In this document: positions 61,375-64,000 of the stretch, one piece after another
Numbering within the stretch: position 1 is the stretch's first letter
How the letters are laid out: every line of letters begins with the position of its first letter
Virus record (IMG/VR): IMGVR_UViG_3300035698_004757
Location: 1 to 64,000 of that record
Source: a virus
Reading direction: 5' to 3' (one strand)
DNA: 64,000 nt
Notes under the pieces: generated by a model
What the model was told of the DNA's origin: nothing
Seen by the model: the letters and a program-made list of their open reading frames with translations, nothing else
Database searches by the model: none
Position numbers and translations under genes: made by a program

Positions 61375-61637
61375 GTGACCAAGAAGACGGACTACAAACC
61401 CTGACCGATACGGTTGAAGCGGCGCGCGAACTGGCCGAGGAACTGGGCGTGCCGATACCGGTGGCATGGAGCCAGCCTGAGTACCGCGCTGTGATGGACG
61501 CGATCCACATGGGCGTCGGCACAGGGGCACTGCGTGACAGCACGGAAACTATGGCGGAGCAAGCGCTGCGCAAGATCGGTGTGGACAAGGCCGACTTGGA
61601 ATTGATTTTTGGTGCCGAGTTCGACCCGGACGCATGA
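61371..61637 (+). CDS. Hypothetical acidic protein
   Basis: ATGA coupling at 61371. Confidence 0.55.
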   Translation: MSDQEDGLQTLTDTVEAARELAEELGVPIPVAWSQPEYRAVMDAIHMGVGTGALRDSTETMAEQALRKIGVDKADLELIFGAEFDPDA

Positions 61638-61715
61638 CTAAGCCTTATCCCCGGTCAGGTGGGACCGCTTGACAACGCCCCACCTGACTTGGGTTTTTAC
61701 TTTGCGAGGTGACTG

Positions 61716-62036
61716 ATGTTAATTGACGATTTTATGCGGGGCGTTGCCGTACTGCGGCGATCGAGTGGGCCGCAGGGGTTCTCCGTGAACCACAACCGAC
61801 TTGACGACGCGACACAGGGGCAGTGGTTCAAGCCGCGACGCGAAGGCCAAGGCATAGGGTCGCAGGTCTACCTCGATTGCGAGCCTCCGACGACGTTTGA
61901 TCGCCCCGACATTCACACGGCTGCGGCAAACGGTGAACTGCGAATGCGCGACTATCTGCCGGGCACGAACACAGGTCAGTACGACGAACTTTTGGCGGCA
62001 ACACAAGACGGGGTGCCGGGTATTGCACCAAATTGA
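61716..62036 (+). CDS. Hypothetical protein
   Basis: SD GAGGTG, 106 aa. Confidence 0.5.
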   Translation: MLIDDFMRGVAVLRRSSGPQGFSVNHNRLDDATQGQWFKPRREGQGIGSQVYLDCEPPTTFDRPDIHTAAANGELRMRDYLPGTNTGQYDELLAATQDGVPGIAPN

Positions 62037-62061
62037 CACACAAGCGTATTTACCGTACAGT
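62033..62061 (+). promoter_or_regulatory. Sigma70-type promoter TTGACA-17-TACAGT
   Basis: Upstream of recQ-like gene. Confidence 0.6.
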
Positions 62062-62134
62062 ACGCAAACTTAATTACACGCTCGGGAACCCCCACCAACG
62101 CAATGTTGTGGGCACCCGTAAAAAGGACAATCCG

Positions 62135-64000
62135 ATGACCGTTGCAACTTCCAATTTGGTGCGCGCCCGTAAAATACTCAAGGACGTATGGGGCTACGAC
62201 GACTTCCGCAAAGGCCAAGGCGATATCATCGCCAGCCTTGTCGCAGGTGAAGACACACTGGCGGTGCTGCCCACGGGCGCAGGCAAGTCAGTGTGCTTTC
62301 AAATACCTGCGTTATTAAGCGACGGCACAACCGTTGTCATATCGCCGCTGATTGCGCTGATGAAGGATCAGGTGGACGACTTAAACGCGATCGGCATCCC
62401 GGCCGCGTTTATCAACTCGACGCAAGACGATACAGAGCAGCAAGAGGTGCTGATTGATTTCACATCGGGTGCCTATAAGCTGTTGTACGTCGCACCCGAG
62501 CGGTTGCGCAACAAGGCATTCCGCGAAGCCATGAGCGGGGCAATGATTAACCTACTGGCCGTGGACGAAGCGCACGCACATCGGCAGGGTAGCGCAATCA
62601 CCACAACACGGGGCGTAAAGCCAGCCGAGCGCGTACAAGTGGGGGATGTCTTACCGGGCGTCGATCACACAACCGGTCGCGTAGCAACTGTCACCGTCCA
62701 CCGGGTGCGCAAGCGGCCCTTGCGGGTTGGTGAGGGCGTTGACATCTATGTGTCCACAGGCACACTGCGTGTAACTTGCGACCACCCTGTATTTGTGGTG
62801 GGTGTGGGCTACGTGCCTGCTGCGTCCGTTCAACCGGGAGACGAGGTGATTACCAATGCCGACTTGTCTAATGTGCAAACAGACGTTTTCGTTGGGGCAG
62901 CCTGTTCATTCGTCGCGTCCGAAGTCGCTAACGAGCCACGTATGTTCGTGCAGATGCCTACGGCTGTACCGGTTGAGCGTGACGCAGTGCTTAAACTGTT
63001 CCGCACCGTTGCTGCCAAACTCGAACCGAGTTTGTTGCTCCGTTCAGTGTGGGCGTGCGCGGCAGGGCGCTGGTTCGTCGCGGCGCATGAACGAGGACAA
63101 TCCTATGAAGTCGCCCGCAGTACGCTTGAAAGTATCCAAAGCGCTGAAGCGACGCGGCGACCCGTTCACCGAAGCGACTCGGGGAGGAAATGGGCGGAAA
63201 ATGCCCAAACCAGCGGCCCGTGTGTTGAAGTGGTTTCCGAGACTACTCCCGGAACATTTGGTTTGTATTGGCGAGAAGAGGAACGGGCACCCGTGGTACA
63301 TCAAAGCCGACTTCGCCGACCCACAACAAAAGAAGATCGTCGAAGTGGACGGGGGTTCGCACAAGCCGCTGGCTGCGAAGAAGCGGGATCGCAATCGCGA
63401 TGTGCTGTGCGTCAAAGCCGGGTGGTGCGTGTTGCGCGTGACCAACCAAGAGGTGCTGACACAACCACGGGAGACGAAATCGCGGATCAAAGCGTATTTA
63501 CGTTCGAGACCGACGGCGCGCAAACGTATTTCGCGGACGGCGTCTTGACGCACAATTGCGTCAGTCAGTGGGGGCACGACTTCCGCCCGGCGTACCAACG
63601 CATTCGTGACGTGGTGGCTGAGATGGATGCAGCGGGTAACCGCCCGACCATTCTCGCATGCACAGCCACATGCCCGACAGGTCTGGAAGACGACGTGGCC
63701 AAAGGCATCGGCATGCGGGAGGACTACACGCGGGTGGTGGCTGATCCGATTCGCCCGAACTTCACATACAACGTGATGCACGGCAACATGTGGGCCAACG
63801 TCACAGGCATCGTGCGCCGGTTCGATGTGGCAACAGGTCGATACCTTGTGTACACCACCACACGTCGGGCTGCGGAGATTATTGCGACCAAGATTGAGGA
63901 CGAACTCGGCAAGAACGTTGTGGCGTTCTATCACGCAGGGCTGCCCAGCCAAGACCGCGAAACAGTACAAGACCAATTCAAGAGCGGCGAGCGCCCCGTG
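62135..64000 (+). CDS. recQ: RecQ-family ATP-dependent DNA helicase, intein-containing, 3'-truncated by window end
   Basis: Hand translation from ATG 62135 (SD AAGGA): WGYDDFRKGQ, LPTGAGKS.CFQ.PAL, VISPLIALMKDQV, LLYVAPERL, AVDEAH|intein|CVSQWGHDFRPAY, ACTAT, FYHAGL; no stop to 64000. Confidence 0.93.
   Translation, partial: MTVATSNLVRARKILKDVWGYDDFRKGQGDIIASLVAGEDTLAVLPTGAGKSVCFQIPALLSDGTTVVISPLIALMKDQVDDLNAIGIPAAFINSTQDDTEQQEVLIDFTSGAYKLLYVAPERLRNKAFREAMSGAMINLLAVDEAHAHRQGSAITTTRGVKPAERVQVGDVLPGVDHTTGRVATVTVHRVRKRPLRVGEGVDIYVSTGTLRVTCDHPVFVVGVGYVPAASVQPGDEVITNADLSNVQTDVFVGAACSFVASEVANEPRMFVQMPTAVPVERDAVLKLFRTVAAKLEPSLLLRSVWACAAGRWFVAAHERGQSYEVARSTLESIQSAEATRRPVHRSDSGRKWAENAQTSGPCVEVVSETTPGTFGLYWREEERAPVVHQSRLRRPTTKEDRRSGRGFAQAAGCEEAGSQSRCAVRQSRVVRVARDQPRGADTTTGDEIADQSVFTFETDGAQTYFADGVLTHNCVSQWGHDFRPAYQRIRDVVAEMDAAGNRPTILACTATCPTGLEDDVAKGIGMREDYTRVVADPIRPNFTYNVMHGNMWANVTGIVRRFDVATGRYLVYTTTRRAAEIIATKIEDELGKNVVAFYHAGLPSQDRETVQDQFKSGERPV
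62576..63556 (+). mobile_element. Intein (327 aa, Ala1, C-terminal His-Asn, +1 Cys) in RecQ motif II
   Basis: Interrupts DEAH|C; AHRQGSAITTTRG.KP.E.V.VGD.L N-block, LRVTCDHPVFV (TxxH), VFTFET....YFADGVLTHN/C. Confidence 0.9.
62856..63548 (+). CDS. Putative homing endonuclease (Zn-finger + NUMOD3-like + Vsr/DUF559-like), nested in +1 frame inside the intein
   Basis: Own SD GAGGTG at 62843-62848; CxxC/CSxxC pairs; NPMKSPAVRLKVSKALK; ADFADP..K.IVEVDGGSH..RD..RD....GWCVLRVTNQEV. Confidence 0.85.
   Translation: MPTCLMCKQTFSLGQPVHSSRPKSLTSHVCSCRCLRLYRLSVTQCLNCSAPLLPNSNRVCCSVQCGRARQGAGSSRRMNEDNPMKSPAVRLKVSKALKRRGDPFTEATRGGNGRKMPKPAARVLKWFPRLLPEHLVCIGEKRNGHPWYIKADFADPQQKKIVEVDGGSHKPLAAKKRDRNRDVLCVKAGWCVLRVTNQEVLTQPRETKSRIKAYLRSRPTARKRISRTAS

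Follow-up and report, generated by a model that had tools for sequence, protein, structure and literature searches.

Can one stretch of DNA hold a contiguous intein and, in another reading frame, a complete endonuclease gene of its own, and if so, which of the two frames is followed by selection? This question is raised by a RecQ-like helicase gene near the end of a viral stretch of 64,000 nucleotides, bases 1-64000 (hereafter the window) of the IMG/VR record IMGVR_UViG_3300035698_004757, a single-contig virus record of 97,672 bp with a G+C content of 58.3%. An original prediction, made from the letters of the window, had read an insert in this gene as an intein whose frame is kept open over an endonuclease gene in the +1 frame. 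In this study I show that selection, acting on which synonymous codons the endonuclease gene uses, keeps the helicase frame open. The insert is very probably a mobile intein at the DEAH^C point in motif II of the helicase, belonging to a large phage family of overprinted inteins. The overprinted layout itself is already published and common in phages; what is unusual here is that the intein starts with alanine, and whether such a copy can still splice is the second question that the locus raises.

Results

The helicase open reading frame (ORF) starts with the ATG at 62135 and ends at 64933 after 932 codons, stop-free to the end of the window and beyond, and contains both a DEAD and a Helicase_C domain according to Pfam. 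Unless stated otherwise, all features described here lie on the + strand. The N-terminal extein (62135-62575) covers motifs I to II of a RecQ-like superfamily 2 (SF2) helicase (Pfam DEAD, E 9e-19) and ends in ...VDEAH, and the C-terminal extein (63557-64000 in the window, identified by Pfam and by the ORF) starts with CVSQWGHDFRP, carries the Helicase_C domain and extends past 64000 to 64933. The motif II region ...VDEAH / CVSQWGHDFRP... is a RecQ signature, and it is split exactly between H and C by an insert of 981 nt or 327 codons (62576-63556), whose removal restores the conserved region. The extent of the stop-free frame (62135-64000) and the position of the insert are both as predicted. 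Judged by its motifs and its alignment with relatives, the insert is a contiguous intein in the helicase frame that runs from Ala1 to THN and is followed by Cys+1. The inteins of three related RecQ genes (loci L005, L010 and L015) are found at the identical DEAH^C point.

In the helicase frame the insert opens with AHRQGSAITTTRGVKP...VGDVL. Its N-terminal splicing domain (62576-62855, 93 residues, blocks A and B) ends in ...PGDEVITN, matches the PT-HINT model over residues 8-95 and aligns with the domains of relatives. A hidden Markov model (HMM) made from the N-terminal domains of 58 relatives matches this intein as well, from model position 10 onward only. The T-x-x-H of block B (T67 and H70, 62774-62785) has its threonine in 46 and its histidine in 53 of 56 relatives. 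The C-terminal splicing blocks F and G (63479-63556, 26 residues) end in ...SVFTFETDGAQTYFADGVLTHN, with the terminal His-Asn and Cys+1 present as ...VLTHN/C at 63542-63559 (slashes mark splice junctions). The T-x-x-H and the THN/C end had been noticed in the original prediction, and both were found back in the sequence and align with their counterparts in relatives.

Between these splicing domains lies a linker of about 207 intein-frame codons (62858-63478), which is the -1 reading of the endonuclease gene, is stop-free and has no family match. A Pfam search of the central 207 intein-frame codons gave zero matches, and with 12% Arg and 13% Ala these codons fit the motif-less, arginine-rich sequence that had been predicted. 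The hydrophilicity of the linker, slightly above that of synonymous shuffles in 93% of loci, was considered as a sign of selection and discounted; it is not counted separately because the excess of Gln and Glu is a product of replacing the T in TAA, TAG and TGA.

The endonuclease gene in the +1 frame (62856-63548, 230 amino acids) overlaps the helicase frame over about 0.69 kb. Its ATG is preceded at 7 nt by a Shine-Dalgarno-like GAGGTG (62843-62848) that lies within the intein codons for D-E-V, in a GACGAGGT context that is also present in loci L001, L003 and L004. Its stop codon TGA (63546-63548) is located within the block G codons for L-T, 8 nt before the intein end, which is the commonest distance among the relatives and the one seen in their largest group. 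Start, motif and stop are all where they were predicted to be.

The encoded protein was identified by Pfam, alignment and structural model. It matches Pfam DUF559 with an E-value of 7.7e-10 (39.1 bits against a cut-off of 20.6), and a similarity search in a library of 1.84 billion proteins gave 1314 representative proteins at E <= 1e-3, 314 of them at E <= 1e-10, most of those listed being 140-280 amino acids long. Its parts are two zinc-ribbon-like CxxC...C pairs, as foreseen in the original prediction, a helical DNA-binding-like region, RGGNG and a Vsr-like/EDxHD core. The residues D152, E163, D165, H169 and D178 are present and invariant across a 47-member alignment, and all other invariant columns of this alignment are kept here too. 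As AlphaFold from the single sequence gave a pLDDT (predicted local distance difference test) of 34, the model based on the 47-member alignment (mean pLDDT 83.6) was used instead. Its best match in the PDB is 3r3p, the catalytic domain of I-Bth0305I (probability 1.00, template modelling score 0.66-0.69 on the target), followed by the DUF559 protein 3hrl and, lower down, by Vsr (1cw0/1vsr). The Foldseek E-values are weak (3.7e-3) as the C-terminal half alone aligns; a profile of the endonuclease family matches the structure 3hrl with an E-value of 5e-13. The predicted Vsr/DUF559-like core is thus recovered at the level of family and of fold. For the predicted NUMOD3-like helix, the model does show helices in that region, but Pfam gives no NUMOD3 match at E <= 1. 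From sequence and model, then, the +1 ORF is a real gene, and its product a member of the EDxHD/Vsr-like homing endonuclease family. A second copy of the endonuclease is absent from the 97.7-kb genome.

A stop arises in the helicase frame where an endonuclease codon ends in T with AA, AG or GA next. Over the 230 endonuclease codons, the endonuclease frame, the +1 frame and the +2 frame, which is that of the helicase, contain 0, 12 and 0 stops, respectively. A count of codon pairs, proposed in the original prediction, shows how the helicase frame stays open: codons ending in T are observed at none of the 49 positions before AA, AG or GA, against 35 of the 180 before other codons. When synonymous codons are shuffled within the gene, 7.2 helicase-frame stops appear on average, and none of 2000 shuffles is stop-free. 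The same avoidance is observed in the relatives, where pooling of 71 distinct loci gives 20 codons ending in T among 4324 before AA, AG or GA versus 2721 among 11382 elsewhere. Selection among synonymous endonuclease codons keeps stops out of the helicase frame. This frame continues uninterrupted over an intact endonuclease ORF with a start and a stop of its own, as in inteins with an out-of-frame endonuclease, and the central proposal, a contiguous intein with its frame kept open over a separately initiated endonuclease gene, is borne out.

In order to see which frame is constrained where, I compared seven pairs of diverged relatives and determined their differences per site by host codon position. 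The third position is the most variable one in the exteins (0.44) and in the N-terminal splicing domain (0.44), and also in the last 25 intein codons (0.24 at position 3 vs. 0.09 and 0.04). In the endonuclease core the peak is at host position 1, which is the wobble position of the endonuclease (0.39 vs. 0.20 and 0.19). A similar division is observed against the sister element, which sits at the same site of the RecQ gene in L005 (support 0.995, FastTree). The endonuclease core is 38.9% identical (z 25.7) and the linker frame of the same DNA 24.8% (z 6.5), whereas towards the 3' end the intein C blocks are 34.6% identical (z 7.5) and the endonuclease tail 9.1% (z 1.7). Together, the periodicity and the comparison with L005 indicate that any given stretch of DNA is under constraint in a single frame, the other being only kept clear of stops. 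Purifying selection tracks the endonuclease frame in the overlap, as expected for an intein with an out-of-frame endonuclease. The proposed double coding of the C-terminal splicing motifs stands as a nominal overlap, in that the last 22 endonuclease residues and the stop overlap blocks F and G. However, this tail is unconserved and poorly modelled (pLDDT < 50 for residues 223-230), and here it is the intein frame that is conserved.

Relatives in IMG/VR were collected by endonuclease similarity alone, which yielded 80 loci. At 76 of these, the reading frame that lags one base behind that of the endonuclease stays free of stops over the whole gene, forming an ORF of 490-2200 amino acids. The expectation that both frames would stay open in homologous inteins, with central conservation tracking the +1 frame, holds. 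At nearly all nested loci, intein ends of the form VYNLEVE..HNYFANG.LVHN/C are found at or just past the endonuclease stop, and several relatives, too, have the GAGG of their start region within intein D-E-V codons. The host genes encode RecQ (L005, L010, L015), DEAD, SNF2 and XPD-like helicases and terminase. In GenBank, tblastn with the +1 protein found relatives within annotated helicase genes of Vibrio phages 159E43-1b and CP-T1, Corynebacterium phage phi673 and Pseudomonas phage MR14. In all four the endonuclease match is in the +1 frame of the coding sequence (CDS), which itself reads DE/CFPAGT...VHN/CHH. As anticipated for annotation pipelines, one of the two frames is missed: the four records annotate the helicase CDS only, and none of them has a separate endonuclease gene.

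Because the same frame is used at 76 of the 80 loci, the nested layout looks like a stable and old design that dominates the endonuclease clade, and it does not look like the passing intermediate on the way to split inteins that had been suggested. Two terminase loci, L025 and L027, differ at 12-18% of wobble sites in their exteins, at 8% in their intein N-domains and at 1 of 477 sites in their endonuclease cores; this pattern suggests ongoing mobility and would fit a recent transfer of the element between diverged hosts.

Some of the related loci have a different or more complex organisation. At L067 (2818-3444) an endonuclease of the same clade stands alone, with unrelated genes on either side, a long ORF downstream and no surrounding intein. 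At L071 (2260-4493) the endonuclease is joined in frame to the N-extein and N-intein (387 amino acids), with the C-intein and C-extein in the other frame, which is either a natural variant resembling a fractured gene or a one-base contig error. The RecQ ORF of 1645 amino acids at L015 (978-5912) apparently contains three inteins, two with in-frame LAGLIDADG/Hom_end domains and, as the third, the overprinted EDxHD element at DEAH^C. The ORF for an SNF2 helicase at L037 (570-4484) contains two Intein_splicing stretches as well as an HNH_3 domain, in frame, upstream of the overprinted element. In Corynebacterium phage phi673 (L002, 1672-4182) the antisense frame is open for 342 codons over the same region, which may be an effect of G+C content.

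The start of the intein was not weighed in the original prediction, and it makes splicing of this copy uncertain. Position 1 is alanine (GCA, 62576-62578) and not one of the nucleophiles Cys, Ser or Thr; it aligns to Cys1 of the relatives, as in AHRQGSAITT here and CHPEGTFIKT in the RecQ element of L005. The block B Thr and His, the terminal His-Asn and Cys+1 are all retained. Class 3 inteins are defined by Trp at block B position 12, Cys at block F position 4 and Thr at block G position 5 (PMC2807308). This triplet is absent here, where B12 is Val72, F4 is Thr and G5 alone agrees. The four sequence signatures of class 2 (KlbA-like) inteins, which are no N-terminal nucleophile, no triplet, block B Thr/His and Cys+1, are all present, as a signature only. 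In class 2, Cys+1 attacks the N-terminal junction directly, assisted by Asp at block F position 4 (PMC2807308); the residue at this position is Asn or Asp in the relatives of the present intein.

Discussion

That the insert is a mobile intein of the overprinted family is very probable from its sequence, but several observations weigh against it as a working element. The curated Pfam intein models score below their cut-offs (PT-HINT 22.8 vs. 27.7 bits, Intein_splicing 14.7 vs. 35.8), so that its identity as an intein rests on motifs and on alignment to relatives; of the HMM search proposed for both frames, the DUF559 half came out above threshold and the Hint/intein half below it. A Shine-Dalgarno-like motif is found in 36 of 69 relatives only, with start codons crudely chosen. 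Scanning 61600-64000 for sigma-70-like promoters gave a single site, TTGACA-17-TACAGT at 62033-62061, which lies 5' of the helicase gene and is based on consensus match only; there are none within the intein, and the route of endonuclease translation has therefore to be inferred. Single-protein queries of viral and metagenome contigs gave no close relative of the phage element or of the helicase, for which reason selection on this particular copy is not measurable, and a search for homologous proteins found nothing of similar length. The remaining points concern splicing. Cys occupies model position 1 in each of the 67 distinct relatives whose alignment begins there, meaning that the N-terminal nucleophile has been replaced in this copy; of the columns conserved to at least 80%, it departs from 6 of 11 in the N-domain and from 3 of 9 in the C-domain; and standard inteins with a mutated residue 1 cannot splice (PMC2807308).

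I nevertheless lean, on sequence grounds, towards a copy that is splicing-competent. By analogy, splicing of the Ala1 copy, if it occurs, must use direct attack of Cys+1 on the N-terminal junction in a class 2-like manner. The insert would then be a functional intein that switched its mechanism, from Cys1 (class 1) ancestors within the overprinted helicase-intein family to Ala1, without the triplet and with direct attack by Cys+1, a proposal that I put forward as tentative. Alternatively, the copy may be a relic, in which the layout is as described but the change from Cys1 to Ala and other block changes have abolished splicing, the open frame being inherited and no longer selected. RecQ would then be inactive, or would work with the insert retained or cut only at the C-junction, and the endonuclease may or may not be active. 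I regard this as rather unlikely, even though it would account for the replaced Cys1, the nine highly conserved columns departed from (two of them invariant), the missing class 3 triplet and, at block F position 4, a Thr where the class 2 KlbA intein has an important Asp (PMC2807308). A helicase-type intein that likewise lacks an N-terminal nucleophile was later judged to be a pseudogene (PMC3196547). However, the ORF of 932 codons is intact, as are the helicase motifs and Helicase_C, the helicase frame has no stops where 7.2 are expected under free codon choice, and the block B Thr and His, the terminal His-Asn and Cys+1 have all been retained. With a nearest relative that is about 39% identical, the divergence has been long, and stops or frameshifts should have accumulated in the meantime if the intein were dead and the gene dispensable.

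In a genome of 58% G+C, long spurious ORFs such as an antisense one of 310 amino acids at 63044-63976 do exist, and the open intein frame might be a chance effect of such DNA. This is extremely improbable: at the rate of 4.8% stops per codon in the alternative frames of 60 other long ORFs of the same genome, P is about 1e-5 for 230 open codons, an open run of at least 205 codons in the equivalent frame occurs in 1 of these 60 genes, the other alternative frame has 12 stops, and the codon-pair avoidance is seen here and across the 71 loci, phages of 42-44% G+C included. Contigs of metagenomic origin can in principle carry indels, and two compensating ones could have shifted an ordinary in-frame endonuclease out of frame, which the original prediction had named as a possible refutation; no support for this was found. 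Logan contigs from four salt-lake metagenome runs, one of which may be the source sample, show no differing letters and no gaps over 61900-64000 where they match at 99% or more, and the pieces span both intein junctions and the endonuclease start and agree on the Ala1 codon. Moreover, the +1 relation recurs at 76 of 80 independent loci and in four isolate phage genomes, and the endonuclease has its own ATG and Shine-Dalgarno-like motif, with its stop in block G codons as in the relatives. Given the contigs of the four runs and the 76 independent loci, I consider compensating indels excluded. Finally, the locus could be a fractured gene with a split intein, or a programmed frameshift could fuse the endonuclease to the N-intein, with the helicase halves joined in trans. 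Vsr-like endonucleases are known between split-intein halves (PMC2677866), and L071 has its N-extein and N-intein fused in frame to the endonuclease and the C-part in the other frame. Still, this is very unlikely for the present locus, where the helicase frame runs without a stop past the N-splicing domain (62135-64933), no start codon preceded by a Shine-Dalgarno motif is found ahead of the C-splicing blocks, and the endonuclease has its own conserved start; a systematic avoidance of stops in the helicase frame would also be purposeless without read-through.

For the overprinted mobile intein, the following sequence of events can be proposed. A single mRNA, perhaps starting at the promoter-like site at 62033-62061, would carry both frames. 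Translation of frame 0 would yield the N-extein, the N-splicing domain, a meaningless hydrophilic linker of about 207 residues, the C-splicing domain and the C-extein, while internal initiation at GAGG-N7-ATG (62856), within the last codons of the N-splicing domain, would yield the free endonuclease. In the full-length frame-0 precursor, the two splicing halves would fold around the linker, which occupies the place usually taken by in-frame endonuclease domains, and the intein would be excised. The free endonuclease would cut intein-less RecQ alleles at ...GACGAAGCGCAC/TGCGTCAGTCAG..., and repair of the break would copy the whole intein-endonuclease module into the cut allele. Pieces of 34-40 nt of intein-less RecQ that were picked up on the conserved flanks come from other organisms and were rejected as alleles of this phage.

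Routine annotation, which reports a single long helicase gene and overlooks the complete nuclease gene within it, biases the counts of homing endonucleases and mini-inteins in phage genomes. The overprinted family offers a clean natural case of overlapping genes that divide their labour along the DNA, and it supports the view that inteins acquire endonucleases via invasion by free-standing genes. In this family the nested state seems to last, and not to be a brief stage on the way to split inteins. The tolerance of an arbitrary linker of some 200 residues by a splicing intein would be of interest to intein engineers, if splicing is shown, and with the Ala1 start it could be tested simply at the bench whether an intein lineage of class 1 is able to shift to a nucleophile-free N-terminus.

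On the minus strand, the antisense ORF at 63044-63976 overlaps the 3' half of the intein and the C-extein and is probably spurious, a product of G+C-rich coding DNA. The palindrome TTGACGCNGCGTCAA is present in 15 exact copies between 189 and 60780, all listed on the + strand, where shuffles expect 0, and none of them lies in the intein. A half-site, TTGACGC at 63545-63551, provides the TGA of the endonuclease, and its complement GCGTCAA is found at 63409-63415.

Comparison with known systems

The original prediction had presented the layout as a new, third architecture, which it is not. Inteins with out-of-frame or antisense endonucleases have been published, with Gorbalenya 1998 credited as the first case in bioRxiv 10.1101/2025.01.02.630785. 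In this survey of actinobacteriophages, Gosselin, Arsenault and Gogarten describe antisense LAGLIDADG, antisense Vsr-like and frame-3 endonuclease VII-like genes in contiguous inteins. Phillips, DeSimone and Gogarten (bioRxiv 10.64898/2026.09.14.751524) report a cyanobacterial dnaX intein with a LAGLIDADG gene in a +2 ORF, which selection follows. In both papers, these authors from the Gogarten laboratory propose that such inteins originate when a free-standing endonuclease invades a mini-intein. The non-canonical inteins of Synechocystis and other cyanobacterial dnaX genes and of actinobacteriophages share with the present element a contiguous intein, a low-confidence linker in the host frame, an intact overlapping endonuclease ORF and selection that follows the endonuclease frame. 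However, the published endonucleases are LAGLIDADG (+2 or antisense), antisense Vsr-like or frame-3 endonuclease VII-like, and their hosts are dnaX, DNA polymerase, minor capsid, terminase and thymidylate synthase genes, whereas here a same-strand +1 EDxHD/Vsr-like gene lies in motif II of an SF2 helicase, and the layout is the rule in the family. Neither such a gene in SF2-helicase motif II inteins nor the dominance of the nested state in the EDxHD endonuclease clade is described in the papers on out-of-frame intein endonucleases that were consulted here, and both may be published elsewhere.

The fractured genes of Dassa et al. (2009, PMC2677866), in which split inteins flank a free-standing Vsr-like or GIY-YIG endonuclease gene, have the same endonuclease family between N- and C-splicing halves and DNA-metabolism hosts in phages. 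There, the endonuclease gene shares 6-69 bp at its 3' end with the intein part downstream, the host frame is broken up and the two halves are joined in trans, in contrast to the uninterrupted host frame that runs through the endonuclease here. In structure, the nuclease core is best matched by I-Bth0305I of Bacillus phage 0305phi8-36 (PDB 3r3p, Taylor et al. 2011, PMC3239194). This enzyme represents the family named for the EDxHD motif, whose invariant acidic and His residues are present here, and both proteins have N-terminal DNA-binding-type motifs ahead of the nuclease. I-Bth0305I is, however, encoded in a recA group I intron and not overprinted, and the identity is about 22% in the aligned core. 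In the ShiLan-type HNH insertion of a phage methylase (Arsenault et al. 2025, PMC11855218) an out-of-frame endonuclease is likewise hidden while the host frame stays open, but that insertion has no detectable splicing domains and its nuclease is of the HNH type.

With respect to splicing, the closest likeness is to the class 2 KlbA inteins (Tori et al. 2010, PMC2807308), which also lack an N-terminal nucleophile and the W-C-T triplet and have the block B Thr/His and Cys+1. The known members are five archaeal KlbA orthologues, whereas the present intein has a phage helicase as its host and Cys1 relatives as its origin; at block F position 4 it has Thr instead of Asp, and its splicing is only predicted. 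If the tentative switch of mechanism is true, it would be a class 2-type intein outside these five archaeal orthologues, found beside class 1 relatives and with its endonuclease still out of frame.

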